The translations under genes and the position numbers were made by a program. From Candidatus Alloscybalousia sp. (lineage in GTDB: Bacteria > Bacillota_I > Bacilli_A > RF39 > UBA660), in assembly GCA_045595895.1 (NCBI GenBank), contig JAZOBJ010000012.1, forward strand, positions 1 to 58,812: a stretch of 58,812 nt of DNA. The letters are read 5' to 3'. Positions 1,902-58,812 of this stretch are shown one piece after another. A model generated the notes under the pieces. That model made no database searches. It saw nothing but the letters and a program-made list of their open reading frames with translations, and was not told the DNA's origin. Each line of letters begins with the position of its first letter. Positions within the stretch are counted from its first letter, which is position 1.

Positions 1902-1930
1902 ATAAAAAAATACATGATATCATGTATTTT

Positions 1931-4111: not shown

Positions 4112-4819
4112 ATGGAAAATTTATATGAATTAAAAGAGTTTTTGCTCGAAAAGAAATACTACATGATTGGAGGAATAATATTTTTGATACTACTAAGTAT
4201 TAGTATATGTTTTAGTTATAATAAATTAACTAAAGAAACTAAAGAAGAAGTCATCGTGTTTAAAGAAGAAAAGAAAGAAGAAATAATAAAAGAAGAAGAC
4301 TGCTACGCAAATGTTGACATAAAAGGGGAAGTGCTAAACCCAGGTCTATATAAAGTTATATGTGATAGTAGAGTTCAGGATGTAATAAATGCATCAGGTG
4401 GCCTTACTAAAGATGGCGATACTTCGTTATTAAACTTAGGTAAAAAAGTTACAGATGAAATGGTAATTATAGTTTATTCAAAGAAAGAAATTGAAAATAT
4501 TAATCAAAACGAAGTTCCAAAAGAGGAAATAAGCATAAACAACACAACTATCAAAAATGATGCGTATATTCAAAATGAGGATTTATTAACTGAAGAAAAT
4601 GAAGTAATTACAGATACCCCAGTTAATGGTTTGATATCATTAAATAGAGCGACTAAAGATGAACTAATGACTTTATCAGGAATAGGTGAAAGTAAAGCTA
4701 AGAGTATTATTAGTTATAGAACTGAAAATGGAAATTTTAAATCTATAGAGGAAATAAAAAATGTAAAAGGTATCGGAGACAGTATCTTTGAAAAAATTAA
4801 AGACAGTATTACACTATAA
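4112..4819 (+). CDS. comEA: Competence protein ComEA (DNA receptor)
   Basis: It has a TM anchor, the SLBB-like VDIKGEVLNPGLYKV, and C-terminal tandem helix-hairpin-helix motifs LSGIGESKAKSII and VKGIGDSIFEKI. The start is moved to ATG 4112, behind GGAGG. Confidence 0.85.
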   Translation: MENLYELKEFLLEKKYYMIGGIIFLILLSISICFSYNKLTKETKEEVIVFKEEKKEEIIKEEDCYANVDIKGEVLNPGLYKVICDSRVQDVINASGGLTKDGDTSLLNLGKKVTDEMVIIVYSKKEIENINQNEVPKEEISINNTTIKNDAYIQNEDLLTEENEVITDTPVNGLISLNRATKDELMTLSGIGESKAKSIISYRTENGNFKSIEEIKNVKGIGDSIFEKIKDSITL

Positions 4820-6881
4820 TTATTTATACATAATTTTAATAATAACTACTTCACTATATAGTTTTATTTATTTAAACTTGTTTAAACCAGAAACGAAACT
4901 AGAACCAAATCAGACTAAAATAGTAGGAGTTATTATTAATATTAAAATATCCAGTAACTTACTAACACTAGAAGTAAAAGAAAAAGAAAAAGTAATAGGA
5001 TATTATTATTTTAAAACAGAAGAAGAAATGAATATTTTTGAAAAAAATTATGAATTAGGAGATACTATTTTGCTAAAAGGAACATTAACCAAACCAACTA
5101 ATAACACAGTACCTAATTTATTTAATTATAAAAAGTATTTAGAAAGAAAGAATATCTTCTATCAGATGAATATTGAAACCTATCAAAAACTAAAAGAAAA
5201 TAGTAATCCCTTATATTTTATAAAAAATGCTATGATAAATCACATCAACACATATCAAACTAAGGATTACTTACACACATTTATATTAGGCAACAATGAT
5301 TTATTAAATCAAGAAACTAATACTAACTACCAAGAAATAGGAATTAGCCACTTATTAGCTATTTCTGGAATGCATATTTCACTATTAAGTAGTATGATAC
5401 TATTTCTATTAAAAAAACTAAAAATAGGGGAAAATAAAGGTTATATAATAACAATTCTATTTCTATTTTTATTTATGTTTTTATCAGGTAATTCACCATC
5501 AGTTAGTAGAAGTGTAATTCTTTTTAGTTTATTAACATTAAATAAAATACTAAAACTAAATATAAAAACACTAAATATTTTAATTATAGTATTTTGTATT
5601 TTAGTAATAGGTAATCCTAATATTTTATTTGATATTGGATTTCAATTTTCATTTATAGTTAGTTTCTACTTAATATTAATTCAAGATAAAATGAAAAATG
5701 ATAACTACATAAAAAGTTTATTAAAAGTATCAGTAATAAGTTTCCTAGTAAGCTTACCAATATCTATTTACTATTTCTATCAAGTTAATATATTAAGTAT
5801 CATCTTTAATTTAATATTCGTACCCCTAGTATCAATAATAATATTCCCATTTTCACTTATAACATTTTTAATACCAATGTTAGATCCTATATTAAAAGTA
5901 CTAATTAACATCATAGAGGATCTAACTGATATCTGTAACCAAATACCTACAGGAAAACTAATATTTGGAAGACCTAGTATTATTTGGATACTTATTTACT
6001 ATGTATTAATAACATTATTTTTATATAAAGGTAAAAAAATGTGTTTATTTCTAACAGTTATATTATTAATAACACAATATTTAAATTTAGTAATATTTTC
6101 CAAAAGCTTTTTAATAGTAATAGACATAGGTCAAGGTGATAGCTCACTAATTTACCATAATAATAAAACAACATTAATAGATACGGGAGGAAAGATAGCA
6201 CTTAATCAGGAAAAATGGAAACAAAGACAAACTAAATCCTTAGCCGATAAAACACAAATTCCATTATTAAAATCTATAGGAATAAAGAAAATAAACAATC
6301 TAGTTTTAACACATGGAGACTTTGATCATATGGGAGAGGCCATTAATTTAGTTAATAATTTTAAGGTAGAAAAAGTAATATTTAATTGTGGTGAGTTTAA
6401 TGAATTAGAACAAGAATTAATAAAAGAATTAGATAAAAGGAAAATACCATATTATTCATGTATTAAAGAATTAAATATTGATGATAACAAATTATATTTT
6501 TTAAACAATAAAGATTACGGTAATGAAAATGATAATTCATCTGTAATTTATACAGAACTTAATAATCATAAATTTCTGTTTATGGGAGATGCAGGAATAG
6601 AAGTAGAAGAAGATTTAATTGAAAAATACAATTTAAAAAATATAGATGTTTTAAAAGTAGGTCATCATGGTAGTAAGACCAGTTCTAGTAAGAATTTTAT
6701 TTATGAAATTGAACCAAAATATTCAATAATTAGTGTTGGAAAGAATAATCGCTATGGTCATCCAAATGACAATGTGTTAGAAAATTTAGAAGGAACGATT
6801 ATTTATAGAACAGATATAGATGGAAGTGTTATGTTCGAAATAAAGAAAAATAAATTAGAGGTTGAAACTTGTACACCATAG
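4788..6881 (+). CDS. comEC: DNA internalisation competence protein ComEC/Rec2
   Basis: A polytopic competence domain (GISHLLAISGMHISLL) is joined to a C-terminal metallo-beta-lactamase domain (LVLTHGDFDHMGE, KVGHHGSKTSS). The start is uncertain and overlaps comEA by 32 nt. Confidence 0.9.
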   Translation: MKKLKTVLHYNYLYIILIITTSLYSFIYLNLFKPETKLEPNQTKIVGVIINIKISSNLLTLEVKEKEKVIGYYYFKTEEEMNIFEKNYELGDTILLKGTLTKPTNNTVPNLFNYKKYLERKNIFYQMNIETYQKLKENSNPLYFIKNAMINHINTYQTKDYLHTFILGNNDLLNQETNTNYQEIGISHLLAISGMHISLLSSMILFLLKKLKIGENKGYIITILFLFLFMFLSGNSPSVSRSVILFSLLTLNKILKLNIKTLNILIIVFCILVIGNPNILFDIGFQFSFIVSFYLILIQDKMKNDNYIKSLLKVSVISFLVSLPISIYYFYQVNILSIIFNLIFVPLVSIIIFPFSLITFLIPMLDPILKVLINIIEDLTDICNQIPTGKLIFGRPSIIWILIYYVLITLFLYKGKKMCLFLTVILLITQYLNLVIFSKSFLIVIDIGQGDSSLIYHNNKTTLIDTGGKIALNQEKWKQRQTKSLADKTQIPLLKSIGIKKINNLVLTHGDFDHMGEAINLVNNFKVEKVIFNCGEFNELEQELIKELDKRKIPYYSCIKELNIDDNKLYFLNNKDYGNENDNSSVIYTELNNHKFLFMGDAGIEVEEDLIEKYNLKNIDVLKVGHHGSKTSSSKNFIYEIEPKYSIISVGKNNRYGHPNDNVLENLEGTIIYRTDIDGSVMFEIKKNKLEVETCTP

Positions 6882-21274: not shown

Positions 21275-21383
21275 ATAAACCTCCATATAATTATTATGGA
21301 AAAAAATAACATATTCATACTAAATAACTTTGACTAAAACACTAAAATAAGTTATCATATTAATAGAATAGTAGGTGACTAAT

Positions 21384-21839
21384 ATGAAAAACAAAAAGGG
21401 ATTTACACTAATAGAATTATTGGGTGTAATAATTCTATTAGGTATTATAATAACAATAGCTGTAATCTCTTACTCATCTAGTTTGAATAAAACAAAAATA
21501 AAAGCATTTCAGTTAGAAGAAGGAAATTTTGTTGATGCAACAAAATCCGCTTATGTTGATTGTTTAGGTAATAATCCAACTAACAATTTCTGTGAATTGC
21601 ACCAACAGTTAGATGACAAAAATACATATGATTTTGTATATTTAAAAGAACTAATTGATGATAATTATATTGGGAAAATTAAAAATCCATATGATACAGA
21701 GCAGTTTTGTGATTTTGAAAATTCATATGTATATGTAAGTAGAAAAAATAGTAGTAACGCAAATAATGCAGATATTGTATATAAAGTATGTTTAATTTGT
21801 GGCGATAAAAAAAGTGAAAATTGTTTAAATGAAGATTAG
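21384..21839 (+). CDS. Type IV pilin / pseudopilin (prepilin-type N-terminal methylation motif)
   Basis: The leader is MKNKKG|FTLIELLGVIILLGII, with Glu at position +5. The C-terminus has four Cys including CLICGDKKSENC. A TTGACT-17-TATCAT promoter and an AGGTGA RBS lie upstream. Confidence 0.85.
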   Translation: MKNKKGFTLIELLGVIILLGIIITIAVISYSSSLNKTKIKAFQLEEGNFVDATKSAYVDCLGNNPTNNFCELHQQLDDKNTYDFVYLKELIDDNYIGKIKNPYDTEQFCDFENSYVYVSRKNSSNANNADIVYKVCLICGDKKSENCLNED

Positions 21840-26501: not shown

Positions 26502-27347
26502 ATGAAAAAAGAGTATAACATAACTTTTGATAGTTATATGGAAGTAGCTGAACCAGAAAATACATATGGCTATATGAAACAGTCATATTGGGCTTTAGCT
26601 ATAGGACTACAACAAGTAGATAATCTAACCCCTTCTAAGTATATGAAGAATCTCATAAATGAGAGTATAAATGAAAACTTAGATAATCAAACATTAGAAA
26701 AAATGATTCAAAAGTACTATGAATCACAGGATATAGAAAAAAGTAATATTCTAGAAGAAAAAGAATGTGATTTAGTAAGTATTAGAATTGTAGAACTCCT
26801 AGAAAATGATAACTTCGAACTATCAATAGATTTCATAAAAGAAATCCATAAATACTTATTCAAAGATGTTTACGAATTTAATGGTAAATTTAGACAAGTT
26901 GATATTACTAAAAATGAATATATATTAAATGGTAATACAGTTAATTATAGTAGTTATGAAACTATTGAAAAATCTTTAGAGTATGATATAGAAATAGAAA
27001 AAACCAAAGAATATAGTAATATGAGTATAGTAGAAGTTATAAATAATATTTCTACTTTCACTTCTAATATATGGCAGGTGCATCCTTTTAGAGAAGGTAA
27101 TACTAGAACGACAGCTGTATTTATTATAAAGTATTTAAAGCATCTAGGCTATAGTGTTAATAATCACTTATTTAAAGAAAATTCTATTTATTTTAGAAAC
27201 TCTTTAGTAAGAAGTAATTATTTCAATAATGAATTAAATGTAAAAGAAGATAATACATATCTAATTAAATTCTATGAAAACTTATTATTAAATAATAATA
27301 ATAACCTACAATCAAGAGATATCATGGTTGATAAATTATTTGATTGA
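26502..27347 (+). CDS. Fic/Fido domain protein
   Basis: The Fic core is HPFREGNTRTTA. The canonical form is HxFx(D/E)GNGRxxR; here GNGR is GNTR and the final Arg is absent. Confidence 0.8.
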   Translation: MKKEYNITFDSYMEVAEPENTYGYMKQSYWALAIGLQQVDNLTPSKYMKNLINESINENLDNQTLEKMIQKYYESQDIEKSNILEEKECDLVSIRIVELLENDNFELSIDFIKEIHKYLFKDVYEFNGKFRQVDITKNEYILNGNTVNYSSYETIEKSLEYDIEIEKTKEYSNMSIVEVINNISTFTSNIWQVHPFREGNTRTTAVFIIKYLKHLGYSVNNHLFKENSIYFRNSLVRSNYFNNELNVKEDNTYLIKFYENLLLNNNNNLQSRDIMVDKLFD

Positions 27348-32248: not shown

Positions 32249-33688
32249 ATGAATATCTTTATAGGAACTTATCATATAGTAAGAGATGTATTTCATTTTC
32301 CAGCTAAATTAATTGAACGTTTAAGAAATAATCAAATACAAAAAGAATTAGTGGAAGAAAAAGAAAATAGACAAAAACAATTATTACAAGAAACCATTGG
32401 AGCAATCTCAACAAATGATGATAAAACAGATCGTTTACTAAAACCAAAAGAAACAAATAAGAAAGATTTAATTACCTTTAATTATGAAGTTAAAAATGAC
32501 CTAGGAAAGGTTATAAAAAGCTCATTTGATGCTAAAAGTATTGATGAAGTAGAAGCTTTTTTAACTAACGAAGGTTATGAAATAATAAAAATTGAACCAA
32601 AGAAAAAATTTAGTTTAGATATGAATTTATCAATACTTCCAGTACGTTTTAAAAGTGGTGAATTAAGTTTTGCGTTAACACAATTGTCAACATATCTTAA
32701 GGCAGGAATTCCATTGATAGACTCTGTTCGTATTTTGGCTAAGCAAACACAAAATATAAGTAAGAAAAAAGTATATGAAAAAATAATTTATGATTTAGTA
32801 GCTGGTGAAAATTTTAGTACAGCTTTAGAAAATCAAAATGATATTTTTCCAAGACTTCTAATAAATATGGTAAAGGCTAGTGAAATGACAGGTGATTTAC
32901 CAACAATATTAGATGAAATGAGTGAATACTATACATCAATAGACCAAACAAAAAAACAAATGATTACAGCTTTAACATATCCATTAATCATATTTTTTGT
33001 TTCAATTATAGTAGTTTTCTTTTGTTTAATTTACATTGTACCTAGTTTCATAAAAATGTATGCTGAAACTGATACAGGATTACCTTCAATTACAGTTTTT
33101 ACTATAAATGCAAGTAAATTTTTATTAGCTCATTATATTCCAATAATTATAGGAATATTAGTCATTATAATAACATTCATTATGTTGTATCGTAACATTA
33201 AAGCATTTAGAAAGACAATACAAGTATTTTTAATGAAAATGCCTGTTATTAGTAAAATAATAATTTATAGTGAAGTAAGTATGTTTACAAGAACGTTTTC
33301 CCAATTGCTAAATCATAGTGTACATATTACAGATAGTATGATAATTTTATCAAAAATATCTAATAATGAAGTCTATAAAGAGATAATTATGAACACATTA
33401 GAAACACTAAGTAAGGGTGGAAAAATTTCTGAATCATTTAAAGGTCATTGGGCTTTTCCAATAGTTGCTTATGAAATGCTGGTAACTGGTGAATCAACTG
33501 GAAAACTCGGAGAAATGATGGGGAAGGTAGCGGATCATTATAATGACTTGCATAAAAATGCTATTACTAGCGTAAAAAGCTTAATAGAACCAATTACAAT
33601 TATTTTCTTAGCATTTACAGTAGGTTTTATTTTATTATCAATTATAATTCCAATGTTTGATATATATGGAGCAGTTGGAAGTATGTAG
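32249..33688 (+). CDS. pilC: Type IV pilus platform protein PilC (GspF family) with an N-terminal extension of about 75 aa
   Basis: Two GspF-type repeats are present (FALTQLSTYLKAGIPL... and FTRTFSQLLNHSVHI...) with three TM segments. The gene is followed by pilD. Confidence 0.85.
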   Translation: MNIFIGTYHIVRDVFHFPAKLIERLRNNQIQKELVEEKENRQKQLLQETIGAISTNDDKTDRLLKPKETNKKDLITFNYEVKNDLGKVIKSSFDAKSIDEVEAFLTNEGYEIIKIEPKKKFSLDMNLSILPVRFKSGELSFALTQLSTYLKAGIPLIDSVRILAKQTQNISKKKVYEKIIYDLVAGENFSTALENQNDIFPRLLINMVKASEMTGDLPTILDEMSEYYTSIDQTKKQMITALTYPLIIFFVSIIVVFFCLIYIVPSFIKMYAETDTGLPSITVFTINASKFLLAHYIPIIIGILVIIITFIMLYRNIKAFRKTIQVFLMKMPVISKIIIYSEVSMFTRTFSQLLNHSVHITDSMIILSKISNNEVYKEIIMNTLETLSKGGKISESFKGHWAFPIVAYEMLVTGESTGKLGEMMGKVADHYNDLHKNAITSVKSLIEPITIIFLAFTVGFILLSIIIPMFDIYGAVGSM

Positions 33689-33703
33689 TTAGGGGGACTT
33701 GCT

Positions 33704-34468
33704 ATGGACACACTTTATATTATAACTTTCTTTATATTAGGAACCATTCTTGGTTCCTTCTACCATGTAGCAGGGTATCGATTACCAAAAGGTGAATCTT
33801 TACTAAAACCTAGACATTCTTATTGTACAAATTGTGGTAAAAAATTAAAATGGTATGAATTAATTCCAATAATTTCATACGTAATTCAATTAGGAAAGTG
33901 TCGTAATTGTCATGAAAAAATATCGATTTTCTATCCGTTTATTGAGATAGTTACAGGTGCCTTGTTCGCAGTTAGTTTTTATTCGTTTGGATTTACATAT
34001 GAATTGATTGTTAGTCTTACCTTAGTGTCTTTATTTAGTATTGTGATTGTTAGTGATTTGAATTATATGATTATACCAGATGAAGTAACATTAATAGCAT
34101 CAATAATAATAATAGTAACCAATTTTTTAAACCTTGGATTAATAGATGGATTATTACAACTTGGTAGTGGTATTCTTACTTTTACAGTAATGTATTTAGT
34201 AATGTTACTTGGTAATTATATGTTTAAAAAAGAATCATTGGGCGGAGCTGATATTAAATTAATGTTCGTTGCAGGATTAGCTCTTCATCCAATATTAGGA
34301 ATCTTTGTTATATTTATTTCAAGTTGTATTGCATTGCCAATTTCAATATCAATATATGCAATAAATAAAGAACATATAATACCATTTGGACCATTTATAG
34401 TAGCAGCAATTTTGCTTTTATTTCTATTTAAGATAGATATAAATATGTTTACTAATATTTTTCTTTAA
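33704..34468 (+). CDS. pilD: Prepilin peptidase (A24 family) PilD
   Basis: It has the Zn-binding CTNCG...CRNC, the GGADIKL active-site region, and eight TM helices. Confidence 0.9.
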   Translation: MDTLYIITFFILGTILGSFYHVAGYRLPKGESLLKPRHSYCTNCGKKLKWYELIPIISYVIQLGKCRNCHEKISIFYPFIEIVTGALFAVSFYSFGFTYELIVSLTLVSLFSIVIVSDLNYMIIPDEVTLIASIIIIVTNFLNLGLIDGLLQLGSGILTFTVMYLVMLLGNYMFKKESLGGADIKLMFVAGLALHPILGIFVIFISSCIALPISISIYAINKEHIIPFGPFIVAAILLLFLFKIDINMFTNIFL

Positions 34469-36256: not shown

Positions 36257-36796
36257 ATGAATAGAGAAGTTGTATTAATAGCAAAAAAGAATTATGAGCA
36301 AAAATTAAAAGAAAAAAAGGAATTATTAGAATTAAGAGAAGAGTTAGAACAATTAAAACAAGATGAAAAAGTTCAAAGATATTTAAAAATATCTAATGTA
36401 GAATGGAAAAAACCAGCAGATGATGAATTTTTAATTAGAAGTTCATTTAGTGGACGTAATCTTTTAGATCCACGTGAACCTAAAATATACTTCTATATTG
36501 GAGCATATAATTGCAGAAATGAATATGGGTTAGAAGATACTCATGCATATGATAAATTTAGTGCTGATTATCTAATGTATAAAAATTTACTAGATGAAAA
36601 TGATGTTGTTAAAACTTCACCTTCTATGGCTTATGATTTTGAAAGCCGTAATATTATACTAAAAAGTAAAAGTCCTACTTTTATTAATAAAAAATTCCAA
36701 GAAATTCAAACTATTTTTTATGAAGAAATACTAAATTGTGATTCTGATTCTCTAGAATTAAAAAAAGTATTAGAAAAAGTAAAAGAACACTTATAA
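36257..36796 (+). CDS. Hypothetical protein, tandem paralog 1
   Basis: This 179-aa protein has a coiled-coil N-terminus. It shares IGAY, ADY..Y.NL, NIILK and L.K+K.HL with the next ORF. Confidence 0.5.
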   Translation: MNREVVLIAKKNYEQKLKEKKELLELREELEQLKQDEKVQRYLKISNVEWKKPADDEFLIRSSFSGRNLLDPREPKIYFYIGAYNCRNEYGLEDTHAYDKFSADYLMYKNLLDENDVVKTSPSMAYDFESRNIILKSKSPTFINKKFQEIQTIFYEEILNCDSDSLELKKVLEKVKEHL

Positions 36797-36812
36797 TAGT
36801 AGGTATTTTATT

Positions 36813-37337
36813 ATGAATAAAGATGTAATTAAGAATGCAAAAGAGAATTATACTAGATTAATGCAAATAAAAAAAGAATTAAAAGAAGTGAAAAAAGAAT
36901 TACTCATCCAACAACAAAATAAAGAAACAAAAAATATTTTAAGAATAATAAGTGATGAAGAAAATAAAATTCCAAGTGATGAAGAAATATTAAAGTATTC
37001 TTTTTATAATGCGGAGCAAGATGATTCCACATGCAATATTTATGTTTTTATTGGTGCTTATCGTAGAACTGATAAAGTTAATGATATTAAAGTATCAGAT
37101 TATAATAAAGCCGATTATTTTGTCTACCAAAATTTAGAAAAAAATTTTTCAGGAATGGTCATTTATCCATTTCAACAACAACAGTTTGAGATTGAAAATA
37201 TTATCTTAAAATTTAAAAACTCTAATAATATTAAAGAAAAATTTTATAACCTTCAATCTATATATTTTAATGAGTATTTAAATAATGAATTTACGACTCA
37301 AGATAAAATACTAGAAAAATTAAAAAATCATTTATAA
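36813..37337 (+). CDS. Hypothetical protein, tandem paralog 2
   Basis: This 174-aa protein is about 30% identical by eye to the preceding ORF over its full length. Confidence 0.5.
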   Translation: MNKDVIKNAKENYTRLMQIKKELKEVKKELLIQQQNKETKNILRIISDEENKIPSDEEILKYSFYNAEQDDSTCNIYVFIGAYRRTDKVNDIKVSDYNKADYFVYQNLEKNFSGMVIYPFQQQQFEIENIILKFKNSNNIKEKFYNLQSIYFNEYLNNEFTTQDKILEKLKNHL

Positions 37338-37356: not shown

Positions 37357-38691
37357 ATGAAAAATATTGTTATATTGCCAGCAGATACTTATGTTGTAGT
37401 AAATAAAACAGTAATTAAAGATTTAGATCGTAAATTAATAACGATGCTTTATCAACCAATTATTGGTTATAGCGCTACCTCACTATATTTTACCTTAGTA
37501 GATGATTTAGATAAAAGGGAATTAATGAGTGAAGATTTAACCCATCATCATTTAATGAGCACAATGCAATTAAAATTAGATGATATAGTAATAGCTAGAA
37601 AAAAATTAGAAGCAGTGGGACTCTTAAAAACATATTTTAAAAAAGACCATGTTAATAATTATGTCTATTTATTATATTCACCAATGTCAGCTAGTGAATT
37701 TTTAAACCATCCAGTATTAAATATCGTTTTATATAATAACTTAGGTAAAAAAGAATATGATCGAATCGTTGATTTCTTTAAAGTACCAAAAGTTAATTTA
37801 AAAGATTATGAAGATATTAGTTCTAACTTTAGTAGTGTATTCACATCAGTTAGTGGTAATGTTTTAATAGAAAATGAAAATATCCAAAAAGAAAATACAA
37901 ATAAAATTAATCTAGCTAATAAAATTGATTTTAATATGTTAATAGCTAGTATCCCAACTAGTATGGTATCATCACGATGTTTTAATGATGATACTAAAGA
38001 TTTGATTAATGCTTTAGCTTTTACCTATGATATTGATAACTTAAATATGCAAGGATTAGTTAGAAATAGTATTAATGAAAAAGGTTTAATTGATAAGACT
38101 GAACTTAGAAAGAATTGCCGTAATTTCTATCAGTTTGAAAATGATGGTAGACTACCAACATTTGTATATAGTAAACAACCCGATTATTTAAAAACACCTC
38201 AAGGTGATAATAGTAAATGGGCTAAAATGGTTTATACTTTTGAAACAGTTAATCCATATGATTTCCTAAGAAGTAAATATAAAACAGGTGAGCCCTCACT
38301 TAGAGATTTAAAAATAATAGAAAGTTTATTAGTAGATCAAAAAATGACACCAGGAGTAGTAAATGTATTAATAGCTTATGTTTTGAAAATTAATAATCAG
38401 AAACTATCAAAAAACTACATTGATACTATTGCTGGTCAATGGAAAAGATTAAATATTGAAACTGTAGAAGAAGCTATGCGTATTAGTGAAAAAGAACATA
38501 AAAAGTTAAAGAAACAGTTTGAAAATAAAACTACTAAGCAAACAACTACATATACTCCTAAAACCAAGAAACAAGAAGAGTTACCAGACTGGTTTAATAA
38601 AGAACTAAAAAATCAAGAAATGACGGAAGAAGATATGAAAGAATTAGATGATATTCTAAATTCAATTGATCAAAAAATATCGTCAATATAG
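37357..38691 (+). CDS. dnaB: Replication initiation and membrane attachment protein DnaB (Firmicute helicase co-loader, DnaD-like domains)
   Basis: The N-terminus has LITMLYQPIIGYSATSLYFTL. The C-terminal DnaD-like region is PGVVNVLIAYVLKINNQKLSKNYIDTIAGQWKRLNIETVEEAM. The dnaI-Tbox-thrS context matches B. subtilis. Confidence 0.8.
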   Translation: MKNIVILPADTYVVVNKTVIKDLDRKLITMLYQPIIGYSATSLYFTLVDDLDKRELMSEDLTHHHLMSTMQLKLDDIVIARKKLEAVGLLKTYFKKDHVNNYVYLLYSPMSASEFLNHPVLNIVLYNNLGKKEYDRIVDFFKVPKVNLKDYEDISSNFSSVFTSVSGNVLIENENIQKENTNKINLANKIDFNMLIASIPTSMVSSRCFNDDTKDLINALAFTYDIDNLNMQGLVRNSINEKGLIDKTELRKNCRNFYQFENDGRLPTFVYSKQPDYLKTPQGDNSKWAKMVYTFETVNPYDFLRSKYKTGEPSLRDLKIIESLLVDQKMTPGVVNVLIAYVLKINNQKLSKNYIDTIAGQWKRLNIETVEEAMRISEKEHKKLKKQFENKTTKQTTTYTPKTKKQEELPDWFNKELKNQEMTEEDMKELDDILNSIDQKISSI

Positions 38692-38697
38692 TGTAAG

Positions 38698-38722
38698 GCA
38701 AGTTGAAAAAACTTGCTTTTTT
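38698..38722 (+). terminator. Intrinsic terminator after dnaB (copy 1 of a duplicated element)
   Basis: GCAAGTT-gaaaa-AACTTGC is followed by TTTTTT. The 18-nt core is identical to that at 39745-39762. Confidence 0.7.
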
Positions 38723-38736
38723 AGTATTTTTTTTTA

Positions 38737-38764
38737 TTGACTTATATTAAATTAATATTATAAT
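38737..38764 (+). promoter_or_regulatory. SigA-type promoter for the 313-aa ORF
   Basis: TTGACT-16 nt-TATAAT. Confidence 0.5.
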
Positions 38765-38788
38765 AATGACACAAGAGGTGTTAATAAA

Positions 38789-39730
38789 ATGGGACAAAAT
38801 GGTTATATGGATGTTTACGCAAAGACATTATTAAATGAAATAAAAAGTAGAATAAGACGAAATAGAGTAAAATTGTCTGGTGAAAATGAACGTGAAACAG
38901 ATATCAAAATGGTAGAAATAATAAAAGGTTTGTGTGTTGATAACAATGGAAAATGTATATCAAAAAATCTATCTTTCAGAAGTGAAGAAGATGAAGAAAG
39001 AGTTTTTTGTACACTGATGCTGTATTATGTAGCGTTGTATAACGATAATATTTCTCTTTTAAATGAATTGTTAGAAAAAGGTTATGTTTTCGGTAATAAA
39101 AGATATGATTTAAAATTGTTTGCACTAGACAAAAGAATTTCATCACAGTTTGATAAAAAAGCGTATTTTGAATTGCTTGATAATCAAAGCTTCTTATTTA
39201 GAACTTTTTATTACAGTTTAGATAGCAGTGCAGACGTAACCGATGAAGAAAGTATAAATAGTTTTTGTAGTATACTAAATAAAGATCCAAAAGTAGCATT
39301 TAGTGAAGAAAAGAATTTTAAAGATGAAAATACTATTTACGCTCTATTAACAAAAGAAACATTGGCTTATTTTGGTGAAGAAGTTATTTTGAATGCTACA
39401 GAAAAACAAAAAAAAGATATTATTAGTTCGGTGCCATTGCATATGTTAGATAGTGCTGAAATTATTAGAATAATTAATCTTATGAGAGATCATAATTTGT
39501 CACTTAGATTAGGTAGATTATCTAAAGAAATACTAAAAGAGTTTTCAGATGATGAATTAATAAAAATTAATGGGCACAAAGAGGATTTACTTCGTAAATA
39601 TTATGATTTCGACACTGGTGAAATTGATTTTGAATCAATACGAAAAATAATCACTGCTCCTTCTGTTCAATTGCAGGAGACAAAAACTAATAAGAAAAAA
39701 ATTCTATGTTTATTTAGGAAAAATAAATAA
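38789..39730 (+). CDS. Hypothetical helical protein (313 aa)
   Basis: The RBS is AGAGGTG. I recognise no motif and no TM helix. The gene is bracketed by the duplicated terminator. Confidence 0.5.
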   Translation: MGQNGYMDVYAKTLLNEIKSRIRRNRVKLSGENERETDIKMVEIIKGLCVDNNGKCISKNLSFRSEEDEERVFCTLMLYYVALYNDNISLLNELLEKGYVFGNKRYDLKLFALDKRISSQFDKKAYFELLDNQSFLFRTFYYSLDSSADVTDEESINSFCSILNKDPKVAFSEEKNFKDENTIYALLTKETLAYFGEEVILNATEKQKKDIISSVPLHMLDSAEIIRIINLMRDHNLSLRLGRLSKEILKEFSDDELIKINGHKEDLLRKYYDFDTGEIDFESIRKIITAPSVQLQETKTNKKKILCLFRKNK

Positions 39731-39744
39731 TTACGTTTTAATAA

Positions 39745-39770
39745 GCAAGTTGAAAAAACTTGTTTTTTTT
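39745..39770 (+). terminator. Intrinsic terminator (copy 2 of the duplicated element)
   Basis: GCAAGTT-gaaaa-AACTTG is followed by a T-run of 8, then an extended -10 element TGtTATAAT. Confidence 0.65.
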
Positions 39771-39820
39771 TATGTTTTGTGTTATAATAAGCGCCAATAA
39801 ATGAAAAGGGGGAATCATTT

Positions 39821-40357
39821 ATGACAAAGAAACAAGTAAGAGGACACATTATATCTATTATTAGTGTTTCGTTATTTTTAATTCTTGCAACAACATTTAT
39901 CTATATACCAAAACAAGCAAGCTTAATGTCATCATTTGCCTTCCTACAAAACGTACAAAACTTTTATATGAAAGAATTAACTAGTGGTATCTTAATGCAC
40001 GATGCTATACCAACTAAAGATGAAAAAGCTAAAAATAATACACCATATACGTTCCAAGTAGTTAATAATTCAGATAAAGACATTACTTACCAAATTATTT
40101 TTAAAAATAATGAAGAAAAAGCTAAAGCTAAGGGTATGGAAGTTTTACCAAATCGTTATTTAAGATATAGTTTAATAAGCAATAATAATGAAATAGTAAA
40201 ACCAAGTACTTTAACTGATGATGGAGTTTTATATGAAACTACTATTAAAGCAAACAGTACTGAAACATTTGATTTTAGAATGTGGTTAAGCTATTACGCT
40301 GATAATGGTGCTATGAATAAAATATTTATTGGTAAAATAGAAATTCAAGAAATATAA
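39821..40357 (+). CDS. Signal-anchored beta-rich protein, paralog of 34548..35177
   Basis: An N-terminal TM helix is followed by GILMHDAIPTKDEKAK, YTFQVVN and FDFRMWL...GKIEIQE, which align with the protein downstream of pilD. Confidence 0.5.
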   Translation: MTKKQVRGHIISIISVSLFLILATTFIYIPKQASLMSSFAFLQNVQNFYMKELTSGILMHDAIPTKDEKAKNNTPYTFQVVNNSDKDITYQIIFKNNEEKAKAKGMEVLPNRYLRYSLISNNNEIVKPSTLTDDGVLYETTIKANSTETFDFRMWLSYYADNGAMNKIFIGKIEIQEI

Positions 40358-40388
40358 TAATATTTAATTGTTTAAAGACGGTGAAACT

Positions 40389-41747
40389 ATGAAAAAAATC
40401 TATAACGAAATAATAAATGGTAATATTAATCTTATTGAACAATTAAATTATTATGATATAAATGAGTTGTTAGAATATATTAAAAATAGTGAAAATAGAA
40501 AAGATATATTAAACAAATTAATACCAATATTTATAAAGAATAATAATTGGCATCAGCTTCACTATGAAATATTTAAATTAATATGTACAGAAAAAGAATT
40601 TAAAGAATATACTTTTTATTTACTTCATAATGAACACGTAAAAATTATAGAATTTCAACCAACAGAGTTTAAAAACATCCTAGAACATACAACATGGGGA
40701 ATAGACTATATTTTAGACAATTTACATAAATGTTTAGATGATCCTAAAATATATGAAATGGTAAATTTCTTAACAGAACACGTTATAACAAATAATAAAA
40801 AATATTATAATAAACTTAAAGAAATAATTTTTGGTTTAAAAGACCATGAATTAATAGATAATTTTATCGCAATATCTATTGATAGTTATCAAGAATTAAA
40901 TAGTAACGATATATTATCTAGTTTATATGAAGATCCTGAAGATTATTATTATCAACAACAAACATTACCTTTTTGTAAAAAAGAAACTAAAATGGCACTT
41001 TCACAAATACCAACACATTTAAAACATTATATTAAAAATAATGAAAGTATTAAACAACTATTATTAGAAAATTTTGAAACGTTTTTAAAAGCCGAAAAAA
41101 AAGAAAAAATGAGTTTTATAGAATCATTATATAATGATCTTCCACAAGAAATTAAAGATAAATATAAAAATATCTATCAACTATATAAAAGTTATCCTGT
41201 TTATTTTGTAGATAAATACATAACAGATATAATGAATCATAATGGAACTAACTTTTTATTAAAATATTTAAAAGATAAAGAAATAATGTATTTAGATACA
41301 GGTAGTACAACTACAGCATTTAAAATAGGTAATGAGGTTTTAAAATTTACTAGACATAAACATGAAGTTAACACAGAAAAAGATATGTTTTTATTAGCAA
41401 AAACATTAACTAAAAATGTATATGATATTGATAAAATTCCAATTTTAATAATAGAAATTCAAAAATATCTAGGAAAAACTCATAATGGCAAAGTAATGAC
41501 TAAACAAGATATCGAAAACTTCCTAAATGAATTGGATAAACAAGGCTATGAAGTTACCGATCCAAATTGTTTAAATAGAGATTGCTGTAATTTTGGTTTT
41601 CTAGGAGATTACAAAGAGGCTAATATAATAAATTATAATTCACATGAAGAATTACCGGAATGGTTCAAAGAAAGACCTATAGTTTTATATGATATAGATT
41701 TAATTTATAAAAAAGATAGTAAAATAAAAAGAAAGTTTATAAGATAA
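40389..41747 (+). CDS. Hypothetical two-domain protein: helical N-terminal region plus a C-terminal protein-kinase-like region (tentative)
   Basis: The C-terminal roughly 170 aa contain LDTGSTTTAFKIGNEVLKF (Gly-loop/Lys-like), TDPNCLN (D-x4-N) and LYDIDLI. The start is moved to ATG 40389, behind GACGGTGA. Confidence 0.4.
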   Translation: MKKIYNEIINGNINLIEQLNYYDINELLEYIKNSENRKDILNKLIPIFIKNNNWHQLHYEIFKLICTEKEFKEYTFYLLHNEHVKIIEFQPTEFKNILEHTTWGIDYILDNLHKCLDDPKIYEMVNFLTEHVITNNKKYYNKLKEIIFGLKDHELIDNFIAISIDSYQELNSNDILSSLYEDPEDYYYQQQTLPFCKKETKMALSQIPTHLKHYIKNNESIKQLLLENFETFLKAEKKEKMSFIESLYNDLPQEIKDKYKNIYQLYKSYPVYFVDKYITDIMNHNGTNFLLKYLKDKEIMYLDTGSTTTAFKIGNEVLKFTRHKHEVNTEKDMFLLAKTLTKNVYDIDKIPILIIEIQKYLGKTHNGKVMTKQDIENFLNELDKQGYEVTDPNCLNRDCCNFGFLGDYKEANIINYNSHEELPEWFKERPIVLYDIDLIYKKDSKIKRKFIR

Positions 41748-41830
41748 TGAATAATTGTTATTCTTTATCTTTTTCTTTTGCTTGATAAACTATTTAAAAT
41801 TTAATAAAATATAACTATAGAGGTGGTACT

Positions 41831-42745
41831 ATGAAAAGTATTAAAGATTTAATAAAACTATCTAGTGAAGAAGTTAATATTCTAAAACAAAATTATATTA
41901 AAAAATTAGATAATCGTGATTTTTCTGAACTTGTAAATATTTTAAATACCAGTGATGATATTTTAATGCAGTATACTTCACAACTAGAAGACTCAAGTCT
42001 AGAATTTCATAACTGTAAGGGATGTAAAGGACTAACAGAATGTAAAAATAAAATAAAAGGTTACATGTATACACCAAAAGTAGAACATGATAAAATTATT
42101 TTCAGTTATGTAGCGTGTAACTACCAACAGAAAAAAGACCATGATACTAAATATCAAGAAAACGTATATCTTTTTGAAGTTCCTAAAAAAGTAAAAGAAG
42201 CTTCGCTAAAAGATTTATATAAAAATGATAAAAATAGAGTGGAATTTATGAAATATGTTAAAACTTTTATTGAAGGACTGACTAATAAAAACAATCCAAA
42301 AGGTATATATTTACATGGAAGTTATGGAACAGGTAAAACATATTTAATAGCTGCATTATTTAATGAACTTGCTAAAAAAAATATCAAGAGTGCTATAATT
42401 TATGTGCCTGAATTCTTAAGAGTATTAAAATCATCTTTTGGAACTGACTTTGAGGAGAAATATGATTATATTAAAAGAGTTCCATTATTATTATTAGACG
42501 ATATTGGTGCAGAGTATTTAACGCCATGGGCAAGAGATGAAATTATTGGAACAATTCTTCAATATCGAATGGATGAAGATTTGCCAACTTTCTTTACCTC
42601 AAACATGAATTTAAAACAGCTAGAAGAACATTTTAGTATGACTTCAAACGGTAAAGAAGAAGTAAAAGCAAGACGTATGATAGAAAGAATTAGAGACTTA
42701 ACTAATGAGTTTGAATTAGTAGGTGAAAGTAATAGAAGAAAATAA
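41831..42745 (+). CDS. dnaI: Primosomal helicase loader DnaI
   Basis: It has the N-terminal Zn module CKGCKGLTEC, Walker A GSYGTGKT and Walker B LLLLDDIG. Its own TTGATA-17-TAAAAT promoter-like element lies at 41782-41810. Confidence 0.85.
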   Translation: MKSIKDLIKLSSEEVNILKQNYIKKLDNRDFSELVNILNTSDDILMQYTSQLEDSSLEFHNCKGCKGLTECKNKIKGYMYTPKVEHDKIIFSYVACNYQQKKDHDTKYQENVYLFEVPKKVKEASLKDLYKNDKNRVEFMKYVKTFIEGLTNKNNPKGIYLHGSYGTGKTYLIAALFNELAKKNIKSAIIYVPEFLRVLKSSFGTDFEEKYDYIKRVPLLLLDDIGAEYLTPWARDEIIGTILQYRMDEDLPTFFTSNMNLKQLEEHFSMTSNGKEEVKARRMIERIRDLTNEFELVGESNRRK

Positions 42746-42780
42746 TAGTGTCTACTATTAATATCTCTAAAGTAAAGATA

Positions 42781-42809
42781 TTGACAAAAAACTAAAAAAG
42801 TCATATTAT
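42781..42809 (+). promoter_or_regulatory. SigA-type promoter of the T-box leader
   Basis: TTGACA-17 nt-TATTAT. Confidence 0.6.
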
Positions 42810-42829
42810 TATATTAAGTTTTTTAAAAA

Positions 42830-43036
42830 CATTAATAAGAGACGAGATTTTTATAGAAGTTTTATAGAGAGTCTAAGTTTGGTGGAATTAGATAAATGAA
42901 TATAAAAGTTACTACTCTTTAGTTGGACCTTAATAGGATTCCCGGACACTAGTTCGTTATTTAAATCAAGTAAGCAAGGATGGTACCGTGCTAAGCACTC
43001 CTGTCATAAATTATTATGATAGGAGTTTTTCTTTTT
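42830..43036 (+). promoter_or_regulatory. T-box riboswitch leader, threonine specifier (ACU)
   Basis: Elements found: AG bulge AGAGAG (42866-71), distal loop GGTGGAA (42881-87), candidate specifier ACT followed by A (42911-14), T-box sequence AAGGATGGTACCGTG (42976-90), and terminator ACTCCTGTCATA...TATGATAGGAGT plus a T-run (about 42997-43036). Confidence 0.8.
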
Positions 43037-43048
43037 GGGGGAGTATGT

Positions 43049-43555
43049 ATGAAAAAAAGAAAATCATATTTTGAAAGTTTTCCTACTAGTAGTTTGTTTG
43101 CAGTGCTAGAACACAATAATAAAGAATTACTAGAATTAGAAATAAAAAAACTAACGAAATCAACTCCATTACTTAAGGAAAGAACTAGACAATTAGAATT
43201 AGTGATAGCAGTAATTAAAAACGTAATTATTGAAAGATATTTACAAGATAATATATCATTAACTGAAATAGCCAGAAAAGTAGTTAAAGAAAGAGGAATC
43301 AAACAAGATGTCTATAGAGAACTATTAACTCTTAGAATAATAAACTCGGAAGAATTCATTTCAGTAGAACTTTTAGAACAGGCAATCGATAAATTAGAAC
43401 TTAATCAAATAATGATGATAATAAGATCTAAAGGAGACACTATTTATGGTAAAACAGCTACTAAGCACTATGATGAAATGATATTTGATGTTGATGAAGA
43501 AGTATACAAAGAGTACATAAATAAAAGAATAATGGATGGTAAAAGAAAGGATTGA
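43049..43555 (+). CDS. Hypothetical helical protein (168 aa) between the T-box terminator and thrS
   Basis: The RBS is GGGGGAG. The stop lies 5 nt before the thrS ATG. I recognise no motif. The start is moved to ATG 43049. Confidence 0.5.
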   Translation: MKKRKSYFESFPTSSLFAVLEHNNKELLELEIKKLTKSTPLLKERTRQLELVIAVIKNVIIERYLQDNISLTEIARKVVKERGIKQDVYRELLTLRIINSEEFISVELLEQAIDKLELNQIMMIIRSKGDTIYGKTATKHYDEMIFDVDEEVYKEYINKRIMDGKRKD

Positions 43556-56114: not shown

Positions 56115-56188
56115 TTCTTATAATTGCTTTACATATACTAAAAAAAAATGTAAAATTAGAATAGTAAGATATGAAAATAGGTGATGTT

Positions 56189-58812
56189 ATGAAAAGTAAA
56201 AAAGGTTTTACGCTAATAGAACTATTGGCAGTTGTTTTAATACTAGGAATAATCTTATTGATTGCTATTCCATCAATAATTAAATATTTAAATAAAGGAA
56301 CAAATACATATTATGCTAACCTTGAAGATAACATCATTCTAGCAGGAAGAGATTATTTAAATGATTACCGTACTTTATATCCTAAAGAAATAGGTAACGT
56401 AACAGTAATTGAATTAAGTGAATTAGTAAACAATAGATACCTTGAAGAAGTTACTGATACTAATGGAAAAACCTGTGAAGGAAAAATGATTGCAAAAAAG
56501 ATAGCTAAGAATAATTATGAATATTATAGTTGTCTAATATGTGAAGAATATAAAACAAAAGGAACAAATTGTGAATACAGTGAGGATAATAATATTACAG
56601 CAGAAACTAAAAATTACAAAGTCGAGATTGAACAAATAAGTTATACGATAAATCAAGGTGAAAAATTTGACTTACCTAAAGCTAAAGCATATTATTTAGG
56701 ACAATTAGTCGATAGTAACGTAATAGGAAGTCCTAAAATAATAGATACTAACAAATTAGGTACTACAACAGTAACTTATGCATATAAAGGTGCAAAGAAG
56801 ACTATAACAGTAACTGTTGTTGATAATGTAAAACCAAGTATGCCACAAGTTGCATTAAGAAATGATAATGCTAGTGGTAATAAATATAATGGTAATTGGT
56901 ATAGTGGTAATATTTATGTAGAATTAAAGGCAACAGATTATACCAAAAATAATTTAGTAGGTAGTGGTATATCTTATTATGAAATAAGTAAAGATGAAGA
57001 AAATTGGCAAAAGCTAACCGGAAATACAACTACAATAAGTGATTTAGGAGATACAACTTATTACGTTAGAAGTATAGATAAAGCTGGAAATATTAGTGAA
57101 AATAATACATTTAATGTAAAGATAGATAAGGAAACTTTTGAATGCGTAATAGAAGCATCAGGAACAAAAGGGAAAAATGATTGGTACACAAGTGATGTTG
57201 AACTACAGGTTAAGGCACTTAATGAACCAACAAGTGGAATTTCAGCTAAAGGTTTAAATAAAACAAATGTAACTACTAATACAACAGGAGATACAATAAT
57301 AGGAACAATAACAAGTGGAAGTGGTAAAATAGCAACATGTACTAAGACAATAAAAGTAGATAAAGCTACACTATCTAAACCAACAATAAAAGCTTCTGAT
57401 AATATAACATCAGGAAATTGGCATAATGATAATGTAACGTTAACAGCAAGTGGAGTGTCATCAACAAGTGGAATTACTTATTATATGGATACAAACACTA
57501 ACCCTGTAACATCAACATCTTCAGTAACAGCTTCAAATAATACTACGTCAACAGGAATTAATTACTATGCCAAAGCATGTAATGGTGCAGGAACATGCAG
57601 CCAAGTAAATAATTATTTATTAAAAATAGATAAGTCAACTCCAAGTTGTACAATAGTAGCATCAGGAACGGAAGGAAATAATGGTTGGTACATAAGTGAC
57701 GTAACACTTAGTCTTGATATTACAGAAACACCAAGTTCAATTTCCCAACAAAATATAAGCGCTAATAAGATAACCACAAATACAACAGGTCAAACTGTAA
57801 CAGGAACAATAACAAGTGGTGCTGGTGCGGTAGCGACATGTAGTAAGATAGTAAGAGTAGATAAAGAACAGCCAACAACCCCAGTAATAAAACTTGACAA
57901 ATCTATAAGTTCAACTACTATAACAGCAAGCTTAGATACATTATCAACAGCAACAAGTAGTATTGATTATTATGAATATTGGGCAGGTTTAGGTACGCCA
58001 GACAATCGATATACAACTAATGTAACTGGAACAACAAAAACTGGTGATGTAACACTAACTAGTGATGATAATAAAGATGCTTATGGAAATATTCATTATA
58101 GAGCAGTTTCAAAATCTGGATTAATAAGTGACTGGAGCAACGGCCCAACATATACAATAGATAAAGTAAAACCAACGCTAAGATCAGTTACCGGAACAGG
58201 CCCAACAGTTACAGAAAATAAAGAAATAACAGTTGAATATTCATCAACAATAACTGGTGAACCAACAGTTTGTTACTATGTCTCAGATACAACAACACTA
58301 TCATCAAATGTAGAACCAATTGAATGTGTAAAAGGTATGCCAGTAAAATTTAATGTAGAAACAATTGGTACCTATATATTCTTCCGTGCTACAAACGGTG
58401 CAGGATTAAGTAGTGATATAACTGAAGCATATCCACTATATGTTAGTAAAAATGTATGTGAGTATGAAATTGGACATACATGGACATTTGATTACAACGG
58501 AAATCCTGAAGAATTCATTGTACCATGTGATGGAACATATAAACTAGAAGTATGGGGTGCCCAAGGTGGAACTTATCAAACTAATACAGGTGGACTTGGT
58601 GGATATTCATATGGTAATAAAGTTTTAAGAGAAGAAACACCACTATATGTCGTAGTCGGTGGACAAGGTGGTACAACTGGAACCGCAGGATATAATGGTG
58701 GAGGTACTGGAACTGATGGAAATATCAAAATAGCTGGTGGTGGTGGTGCTACCCATATGGCATTAGCTGGTGATGTACTTAAGAATGTCGATGTTTCTAA
58801 ATTATTAATTGT
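56189..58812 (+). CDS. Giant modular type IV pilin-like protein (at least 874 codons, 3' end beyond the window)
   Basis: An AGGTGATG RBS precedes the leader MKSKKG|FTLIELLAVVLILGII. I translated the frame by hand to the window end and found no stop. The first roughly 130 aa are paralogous to the 21384 pilin (YYSCLICEEYKTKGTNC versus YKVCLICGDKKSENC). Ig-like modules and a Gly-rich module follow. The ORF is not in the supplied track. Confidence 0.8.
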   Translation, partial: MKSKKGFTLIELLAVVLILGIILLIAIPSIIKYLNKGTNTYYANLEDNIILAGRDYLNDYRTLYPKEIGNVTVIELSELVNNRYLEEVTDTNGKTCEGKMIAKKIAKNNYEYYSCLICEEYKTKGTNCEYSEDNNITAETKNYKVEIEQISYTINQGEKFDLPKAKAYYLGQLVDSNVIGSPKIIDTNKLGTTTVTYAYKGAKKTITVTVVDNVKPSMPQVALRNDNASGNKYNGNWYSGNIYVELKATDYTKNNLVGSGISYYEISKDEENWQKLTGNTTTISDLGDTTYYVRSIDKAGNISENNTFNVKIDKETFECVIEASGTKGKNDWYTSDVELQVKALNEPTSGISAKGLNKTNVTTNTTGDTIIGTITSGSGKIATCTKTIKVDKATLSKPTIKASDNITSGNWHNDNVTLTASGVSSTSGITYYMDTNTNPVTSTSSVTASNNTTSTGINYYAKACNGAGTCSQVNNYLLKIDKSTPSCTIVASGTEGNNGWYISDVTLSLDITETPSSISQQNISANKITTNTTGQTVTGTITSGAGAVATCSKIVRVDKEQPTTPVIKLDKSISSTTITASLDTLSTATSSIDYYEYWAGLGTPDNRYTTNVTGTTKTGDVTLTSDDNKDAYGNIHYRAVSKSGLISDWSNGPTYTIDKVKPTLRSVTGTGPTVTENKEITVEYSSTITGEPTVCYYVSDTTTLSSNVEPIECVKGMPVKFNVETIGTYIFFRATNGAGLSSDITEAYPLYVSKNVCEYEIGHTWTFDYNGNPEEFIVPCDGTYKLEVWGAQGGTYQTNTGGLGGYSYGNKVLREETPLYVVVGGQGGTTGTAGYNGGGTGTDGNIKIAGGGGATHMALAGDVLKNVDVSKLLI
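57122..57366 (+). repeat. Intragenic repeat A (about 82 aa, Cys-bracketed module) of the giant pilin
   Basis: IDKETFECVIEASGTKGKNDWYTSDVELQV...TTNTTGDTIIGTITSGSGKIATCTKTIKVDKA. Confidence 0.8.
57626..57870 (+). repeat. Intragenic repeat B (about 82 aa, Cys-bracketed module) of the giant pilin
   Basis: IDKSTPSCTIVASGTEGNNGWYISDVTLSL...TTNTTGQTVTGTITSGAGAVATCSKIVRVDKE. It lies 504 nt downstream of repeat A and is roughly 50-55% identical to it at the protein level by eye. Confidence 0.8.

Follow-up and report, generated by a model that had tools for sequence, protein, structure and literature searches.

The genes for the DnaB/DnaD-family helicase co-loader and the AAA+ helicase loader, dnaB and dnaI, lie in one operon in Bacillus subtilis, as a passage of PMC2874997 states with reference to Bruand and Ehrlich (1995). 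In the stretch of DNA analyzed here, 58,812 nt of contig JAZOBJ010000012.1 from Candidatus Alloscybalousia sp. (hereafter the window), three unrelated genes stand between the same two, which raises the question of how they came to lie inside an essential replication operon and whether they form a unit. The original prediction, made from the sequence alone, had read them as one three-gene cassette, possibly coupled to replication or to defense. Its coordinates were all correct: dnaB ends at 38691, dnaI starts at 41831 and three genes stand between. The left anchor, dnaB (37357–38691, + strand; Pfam DnaB_2, 3e-12), has the two NCBIfam DnaB co-loader models as its top matches, the better at 317 bits, which is below cutoff; the right anchor, dnaI (41831–42745, +), scores 276.8 bits with NCBIfam PRK08939 (cutoff 228). 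The gap of 3,139 nt contains two terminator hairpins and holds orf1 (38789–39730, +), encoding a strain-variable, all-alpha protein of 313 aa, orf2 (39821–40357, +), encoding 178 aa with a putative N-terminal membrane anchor, both delimited from the open reading frame (ORF) listing and a reading of the sequence, and orf3 (40389–41747, +), encoding 452 aa with a helical and a kinase-like domain, its start placed at the ATG used by homologs. Comparison with relatives leads us to consider it probable that the spacer is a tolerated accessory-gene slot, containing layers of independent, self-contained transcription units and no three-gene functional module.

Relatives were collected in several ways. 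A DnaI-anchored scan with one genome per species gave 11 loci from metagenome-assembled genomes (MAGs) of uncultured gut "Bacilli"/"Tenericutes", one of which belongs to Candidatus Scybalousia intestinigallinarum (genus now Candidatus Alloscybalousia at NCBI, Bacilli incertae sedis). A metagenome scan anchored on orf2 contributed a further 17 orthologous loci, and L017, L022, L023, L080 and L086 (relatives' loci are cited by such numbers) were added by exact-protein look-up. Window proteins were mapped onto the relatives' loci with tblastn, and about 35 related loci were compared. The anchors are well conserved, with dnaI 61–83% identical across the 11 genomes and dnaB 72–91% identical in ingroup loci and 74–77% in outgroup loci. 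The filled interval is derived, as had been proposed: in the outgroups L009–L011 (dnaI 61–64% identical) dnaB and dnaI are 2–150 nt apart, with pilD directly upstream of dnaB. In all ingroup loci that can be read over this stretch, orf2 is present after dnaB. By comparison, orf3 is present at this interval only in the window, L002, L006, L007, L022, L023 and L033, and orf1 at this site is limited to the window, L017 (72% identical) and L080 (64%). Other lineages carry other cargo in the slot. In L003 it is an ABC transporter of three genes, in L024 a surface protein of 865 aa, and in L034 a genuine type IV pilin (4168–4827), which has the N_methyl motif and lies directly downstream of orf2, plus fragments; the dnaB–orf2 spacer of L037 has a 228-aa signal-anchored protein together with a DUF1016 fragment. 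At the dnaB–orf2 point where the window has orf1, L005 contains a 463-nt non-coding insert (5543–6005). Since orf2 is fixed, orf3 patchy and orf1 rare, and the three vary independently across loci, they are not one three-gene cassette; and as the relatives do not all carry the same three genes, the idea of an insertion survives for orf1 only. The dnaB–dnaI spacer is a lineage-specific variable slot, filled in layers.

Presence of orf1 varies even within the species. Same-species contigs L022 (309 kb) and L023 lack exactly 1,047 bp, with flanks 99.3–99.5% identical, and in them the dnaB stop codon is followed by a single terminator and then directly by the orf2 promoter. In BLASTN, positions 2–431 of L022 align on 38302–38732 of the window and 407–3722 on 39754–43070. 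The strain-variable segment (38692–39738, +) comprises one copy of a repeat, the orf1 promoter and orf1, its boundaries being ambiguous within the 25 nt of the repeat. The 18-nt terminator core of this repeat, GCAAGTTGAAAAAACTTG, occurs exactly twice in the 58.8 kb with up to 2 mismatches allowed (0 expected from shuffled sequence), at 38698 and 39745, and so brackets orf1 just as described before; it extends to 25 nt with 24/25 identical positions and a period of 1,047 nt. A looser hairpin pattern found no window site beyond these two copies, and the 18-mer was in none of the 81 relatives' loci searched. The inference from duplication would have been weakened by a repetitive extragenic palindromic (REP)-like sequence scattered over the genome; as far as the window and the 81 loci reach, the 18-mer is not such an element.

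One could take this repeat as the fresh scar of a recent de novo insertion or duplication in the window strain. The two copies are nearly identical, no third sequence like them turns up in the window or the loci, and the segment is absent from same-species strains, all of which such an event would produce. However, the junctions of orf1 in L017 and L080 are the same, and the promoter and leader sequences there are orthologous to those of the window: on the left, all three have terminator, orf1 promoter and the ribosome-binding site (RBS) AAGAGGTG; on the right, terminator, TGnTATAAT and orf2 leader. Synonymous divergence (dS) of orf1 among the three carriers is 0.63–0.78, about 0.7 for L017 and L080, as against 0.62 for the flanking orf2, and a ratio of non-synonymous to synonymous divergence (dN/dS) of 0.22–0.32 indicates purifying selection. 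Being in step with that of the flanks, this divergence implies that a selected orf1 has been at the site since these lineages separated. Moreover, the composition of orf1 is that of the host (25–27% GC, equal to the flanks), the window holds no donor copy, and no homolog more than 72% identical was found in 5.8 billion proteins. A recent insertion is thereby largely refuted, and we give it very little chance. The earlier view of the duplicated terminator as an insertion mark was therefore partly right: it accompanies a real 1,047-bp indel, seen against L022 and L023, but is not a fresh scar.

The arrangement of promoters and terminators offers a different account of why there are two copies. 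The left copy (38695–38722, +) follows dnaB as its predicted terminator, with a 10-bp stem, a 5-nt loop and a T-run (−11.7 kcal/mol, z −3.5), and passes a terminator scan. The right copy (39742–39769, +), which would terminate orf1, has a 9-bp stem and a 9-T run (−8.0 kcal/mol, z −2.0) and fails the consensus scan because its stem has fewer G–C pairs; both copies consist of a stem-loop and T-run after a stop codon, as intrinsic terminators do. Downstream of the right copy lies the extended −10 of the orf2 promoter, TGTTATAAT (39780–39788, +), followed by the conserved leader GCGCCAATAAATGAAAAGGGGG, and both are kept in relatives with or without orf1. The 3′ arm and T-run of the right copy place TTGTTT (39760–39765) at the expected −35 position. 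When about 27 dnaB–orf2 spacers were aligned on the −10 box, the hairpin 3′ arm and T-run always lay 17 nt upstream of TGnTATAAT, reading CTTGCTTTTTT in close relatives and CTTGACTTTTT in more distant ones (CTTGC or CTTGAC plus T-run). Given this spacing, one short element appears to serve both as upstream terminator and as −35 region of orf2, and a gene placed between dnaB and orf2 without breaking either would then need two copies of it.

The remaining promoter-like elements are present where they had been placed, and they are conserved in relatives. That of orf1 is of sigma-70 type, TTGACT-16-TATAAT (38737–38764, +; 11/12 consensus match), with the RBS next to it, and that of dnaI is TTGATA-17-TAAAAT (41782–41810, +; 10/12), of which CTTGATAAA...TA(A/C)AAT is kept upstream of dnaI in L001, L003, L005 and L008. 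Promoter-like matches as such are in no excess in this 25% GC window (95 vs. 100.7 in shuffles), so that the credibility of these elements rests on their conservation. There is no terminator between orf2 and orf3, and only a weak hairpin downstream of orf3. With the gap, the hairpins and promoter-like elements for orf1, orf2 and dnaI, dnaB and dnaI here show neither the juxtaposition nor the signs of co-transcription of an operon, and we predict that dnaB, orf1, orf2(-orf3) and dnaI are separate transcription units.

In L080 the two hairpins around orf1 have unrelated stems and share only TTTTTTTAGTGTTTTG, which shows that drift does erase repeat similarity. In both the window and L017, the copies within a genome are more alike than the matching copies between genomes. 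Given the drift seen in L080, the near-identity of the window copies (24/25) and the likeness of the L017 pair point to later homogenization, and gene conversion may be what keeps the window copies alike. A terminator repeat that is purely a scar was considered and ruled out by the −35 overlap and the L080 case.

Gene content, the same-species empty site, the junctions shared by three lineages, dS and dN/dS, and promoter geometry are direct observations, and from them a history can be proposed in which transcription and the route of recombination are reconstructed. The gene orf2 would have entered the clade ancestor first and become fixed, and orf3 would have been added in some lineages only. 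As a third layer, orf1, a single-gene unit with its own promoter, would have arrived in a single, ancient insertion between the dnaB terminator and the orf2 −10, duplicating an element of about 25–40 nt made up of hairpin, T-run and AGTGTTTT. Owing to the two roles of that element, the duplication would have left dnaB and orf1 each terminated and orf2 with its promoter, while dnaI would be served by its own conserved promoter. Versions with and without orf1 would have persisted since as a presence/absence polymorphism, the alleles probably being exchanged by homologous recombination in the flanks (the 3′ end of dnaB, and orf2), with occasional loss.

The main rival to this history is loss alone, which we regard as unlikely. 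It holds that the order dnaB, terminator, orf1, terminator, orf2 was ancestral to the sub-clade and that every empty site, those of L022, L023 and L086 included, arose by deletion, with recombination or slippage between the direct terminator repeats as the route; alleles would then not have to be exchanged at all. The missing segment is bounded precisely by direct repeats of 25 nt, orf1 is old at the site by its dS in three lineages, and the patchy distribution fits repeated loss. Deletion between the left and right copies of the window allele should, however, leave a hybrid of the two, and the L022 empty site, ATACGAAAAAGCAAGAAAAACTTGC, is not that hybrid: it lacks the TTGA found in both window copies, and the bases directly after the dnaB stop codon differ. 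The same variant occurs in the sister lineage L086, the closest by orf2 (88% identical), which has no orf1 and whose empty-site hairpin, AAAGCAAGAAAAACTTGCTTTTTTT, is the same as that of L022. As similar variants are found in more distant species, the empty allele itself appears to be old. In addition, most of the roughly 27 dnaB–orf2 junctions are empty, and loss alone would need many independent deletions.

Exchange of an old empty and an old occupied allele, as we propose, has some trace in the window–L022 comparison. Mismatches number 8 in 581 nt for orf2 vs. 3 in 1346 nt for orf3 (p=0.004), and dS is 0.051 for orf2, 0.004 for orf3 and 0.023 for dnaI. The mismatch cluster in 39821–40401 suggests a recombination tract ending near 40400, and import of a tract over orf1 and orf2 would look like this pattern. 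Several points weigh against the history we favor. On the left, the same-species flank of about 355 nt has 1 mismatch, and no import tract is visible there; the history of the window strain fits retention, re-import, or loss in L022. Misassembly at a strain-variable site is possible, since short metagenomic contigs or MAGs make up most of the loci, and L022 starts within dnaB, a kind of contig end that polymorphisms typically cause in assemblies. Finally, repeats of 25 nt lying 1 kb apart would be close to the minimum for RecA-type exchange, which bears on the gene conversion proposed above.

A further explanation is that orf1 is an active mobile cassette, moved by hairpin-targeted site-specific recombination (attC-like or terminator-targeting) with a recombinase encoded elsewhere. 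That the flanking repeats are hairpins, that the copies are more alike within than between the window and L017 genomes, and that the same spacer took up other inserts (L005, L037) would all agree with this. Yet no integrase, transposase, relaxase or recombinase was found among about 30 neighboring proteins in roughly 30 kb around the site, which include dnaG, sigA, trmK, pilC, pilD, uvdE, thrS and mraZ-rsmH-ftsL-pbp. The stem is that of a plain terminator of 9–10 bp, without attC length or extrahelical bases; the hairpins of L080 are unrelated; and flanking repeats are lacking around the orf1 homologs of five other contexts. No locus with orf1 or orf3 was found in IMG/VR viral contigs, and tblastn of orf1 against phage and plasmid records gave no match. 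We consider an active cassette highly improbable. The likeness to integron cassettes lies in a single gene bounded by repeated hairpins and in an array-like slot whose number of units varies; the differences are that there is no integrase, attI or attC here, that each gene has its own promoter, that the hairpins are ordinary terminators and that divergence matches vertical descent.

Conventional vehicles were considered as well. A target-site duplication by an insertion sequence or transposon was rejected, as there is no transposase, no terminal inverted repeats surround the orf1 segment beyond the hairpins themselves, and 25 nt is far above the usual duplication length. An integron cassette was rejected because no recombinase domain occurs in the approximately 30 neighbors, orf1 has its own promoter and the hairpin is a simple terminator. 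Prophage or plasmid cargo was set aside on the lack of any phage, plasmid or viral match and on a GC content identical to that of the flanks.

A bolder proposal is that genes insert at intrinsic terminators independently of any recombinase, perhaps through hairpin-seeded template switching or gene conversion, and that orf3 separately founds a minimal kinase-like family. We hold this to be a long shot. If it were true, terminators would be general landing pads for self-contained genes in reduced, AT-rich genomes; hairpin-seeded insertion would regenerate the terminator/−35 element on both sides; and the orf1 unit and the L005 and L037 inserts, located at the same few nucleotides, would share this route of insertion.

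Do the three genes nevertheless work together? A functional module of orf1–orf3, for example a membrane sensor with a kinase-like enzyme, coupled to helicase loading or to anti-phage defense, would be consistent with the adjacency of orf2 and orf3, without a terminator, wherever both occur, and with the retention in orf3 of invariant K/N/D residues typical of phosphotransferases. Phage proteins that target DnaI have also been described (PMC4887207). Against this, orf1, orf2 and orf3 occur independently of one another. Distant orf3 homologs have uvrB and a LysR gene as neighbors, or stand between truB and nusA, without orf2, dnaB or dnaI, and distant orf1 homologs lie after mraY-ftsW (L012–L015), beside ftsW (L016), near nrdD (L018) or, in L020, ahead of an aminoacyl-tRNA synthetase gene of the tRNA-synt_2 family. 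Other slot cargo consists of surface proteins, a pilin and an ABC transporter. PADLOC-DB 2.0 gave no match, at E up to 0.1, for orf1–orf3, four window neighbors and the 650-aa L001 gene, and PHROGs gave noise alone for orf1–orf3. The earlier suggestion of replication coupling or a defense module thus found no counterpart in the PADLOC, PHROG, phage, plasmid or viral-contig searches, and we see hardly any likelihood of such a module. What the interval shows is the usual turnover of accessory genes, with no module for replication or defense.

The three proteins are uncharacterized, and each family can now be delimited, with confident AlphaFold2 (AF2) models for two of them, orf1 and orf3. None of the three matched a family in the Pfam, NCBIfam, PADLOC and PHROGs scans, and their alignments, including a broad one for orf3, gave no meaningful match in PDB profile searches. 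The orf1 family comprises 18 sequences among the 5.8 billion proteins. As had been noted before, the protein is helical without a recognizable motif: its AF2 model (pLDDT 86, pTM 0.80) is all-alpha, and its fold has no match in PDB or BFVD (Foldseek, E>2 throughout). Homologs elsewhere are preceded by a promoter-like element and AGAGGTG or a similar RBS, the −35 being less clear in L018, and within these bacteria orf1 is an ordinary chromosomal gene, encoding a cytoplasmic ORFan. A role in the cell envelope or in division is a weak guess from the mraY-ftsW neighborhood. A 447-aa gene upstream of the orf1 homolog in L020 was checked and is not a DnaB homolog.

More can be said of orf3, for which a kinase-like C-terminus had been tentatively suggested. 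Its AF2 model (pLDDT 88.8, pTM 0.81) has a helical domain at residues 1–295 and a small alpha/beta domain at 298–452. The protein evolves fast (33–39% identity between species vs. about 82% for dnaI), and an exhaustive profile search placed it in a family of 209 clusters at 50% identity. Among 82 diverse members, three residues (K319, N401 and D435) are invariant and four more (G305, E356, D391 and D437) reach at least 90% conservation. The set is phosphotransferase-like, and these residues would take the kinase roles of Gly-rich loop, beta-3 Lys, catalytic D...N loop and metal-binding Asp. AceK has a kinase-like domain together with a regulatory one. Foldseek matched orf3 to AceK (E 4.9e-3), PKR (probability 0.99, E 0.037) and CDK7 (0.95), with low TM-scores of about 0.2–0.3. 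With AceK-type (PDB 6K5L) kinase-like enzymes, orf3 shares the layout of a helical N-terminal and a small C-terminal alpha/beta domain, a Gly-rich turn, the invariant strand Lys, a D...N loop and a DxD motif; it differs in that its C-terminal domain has only about 155 aa, no alpha-C helix is evident, and Foldseek E values are, in round figures, at least 5e-3. Kinase Pfam models matched neither 29 orf3 members nor 10 distant members, and orf3 has no sequence or profile match in PDB. The kinase suggestion therefore keeps the invariant residues and a weak fold resemblance in its favor but gains no kinase Pfam match, and orf3 may be an ATP-dependent enzyme or a pseudoenzyme. With about 200 clusters, a helical and a kinase-like domain and invariant K/N/D, the family is a candidate for biochemical test. 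One sequence, P0049, was followed as a lead to a known domain and rejected, being actually a fusion or fragment of DUF1016_N and the orf3 C-terminus.

In orf2, about 20 hydrophobic residues come after a basic N-terminus, which suggests a membrane-anchored protein with an outward-facing C-terminus. Homologs of orf2 number 63, none of them below 51% identity, and are confined to this clade. The gene had been called a paralog of the gene after pilD, and the relationship holds as a remote one (BLASTP E 2e-4; hhalign probability 98.6%, E 7.7e-16): the orf2 ectodomain shares homology with the N-terminal domain that begins that gene's product and surface proteins of 500–865 aa in gut Bacilli. We infer that orf2 is a standalone copy of a surface-protein N-terminal domain and would itself be surface-exposed. 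Two identities were tried and discarded: a type IV pilin or pseudopilin, as there is no N_methyl match (PF07963, G|FTLIE motif), and, for orf2 and the gene after pilD, a TasA/camelysin SipW-dependent fiber, as there is no match to a Pfam or NCBIfam model (E up to 0.1) or a PDB profile. The 'GVSYAFF'-like N-terminal motif is no more than a resemblance to TasA/SipW, which no model confirmed. In L042 (5767–7365), from human gut, an orf2-type N-terminal domain is fused to what by eye is a Hint/intein-like C-terminus (CFEAGT...VVHN), an architecture that would be that of a polymorphic toxin or a self-processing surface protein.

Set beside the B. subtilis-type operon, the window keeps both genes and their order, and thrS again lies downstream, preceded by a T-box leader, but the pair is 3.1 kb apart, a strong terminator follows dnaB, dnaI has its own promoter-like element, and up to three unrelated genes intervene, their content varying by species and strain. 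The dnaB-dnaI operon is often treated as fixed in Firmicutes; here, in one gut clade, it is split and given separate promoters, with neither gene lost. Another parallel is found in small accessory-gene islets at hotspots between conserved core genes, presence/absence polymorphisms that homologous recombination in the flanks maintains, which likewise have conserved flanks, variable cargo among close relatives, an empty allele in the same species, host-like composition, no mobility genes and raised divergence in the adjacent flank. The differences are that the slot described here lies inside an essential replication operon, that its cargo consists of ORFan families and that its indel is flanked by a duplicated terminator/−35 element. 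What looked like a module within a replication operon is then layered accessory-gene turnover, a new example of a familiar phenomenon, and the duplicated element shows how a gene can enter between two transcription units with neither broken.

Some further occupants of the slot and its surroundings deserve mention. The L005 insert holds several copies of a hairpin with CCGTTTTT and may be a decayed insert or an element resembling miniature inverted-repeat transposable elements. The fragment in L037 (3750–4130) resembles, as judged by eye, a DUF1016/YhcG-type nuclease, and in P0049 the DUF1016_N domain is fused to the last approximately 105 residues of orf3; DUF1016 genes therefore entered the interval more than once. 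In the outgroups, the dnaB–dnaI spacer contains an ORF of 39–41 aa with one predicted transmembrane helix (L009, 6123–6242; L011, 9871–9996), kept in both, with the layout MEYN, K-rich stretch, hydrophobic stretch. It may be a real mini-protein, and its likeness to the orf2 anchor is one of layout only. Rfam gave no credible RNA within the dnaB–dnaI interval of the window. Downstream of dnaI, an RNase R/RNase II-like gene of 644–650 aa (TIGR02063, 2e-55) overlaps or abuts the dnaI stop codon in three relatives (L001, 5244–7196; L002, 3323–5275; L003, 10921–12855) and is absent from the window, so that this spacer is variable too.

A second variable slot adjoins dnaB on its other side. In the window, the uvdE–dnaB gap (36257–37337) holds two paralogous ORFs of 179 and 174 aa without a family match, which are absent from L001–L008 (uvdE–dnaB spacing 36–277 nt) and have distant homologs, 27–29% identical, in L030 only. 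Beyond dnaI, a T-box leader (42823–43005; 72.7 bits, E 5e-16, below the Rfam gathering score of 93) with a terminator-like hairpin at 42997–43026 lies downstream of a TTGACA-17-TATTAT promoter (42781–42809) and upstream of a conserved 179-aa ORF (43016–43555) and thrS, and therefore appears to control a two-gene unit. Type IV pilus genes, comprising two pilins with the GFTLIELL motif, pilC (T2SSF) and pilD, are dispersed among housekeeping genes of the window (21375–21839, about 56180–56300, and 32249–34468). A Fic/DOC-domain protein (7e-13) is encoded at 26502–27347, between the genes for a yqeH-like GTPase and a DUF6512 protein.

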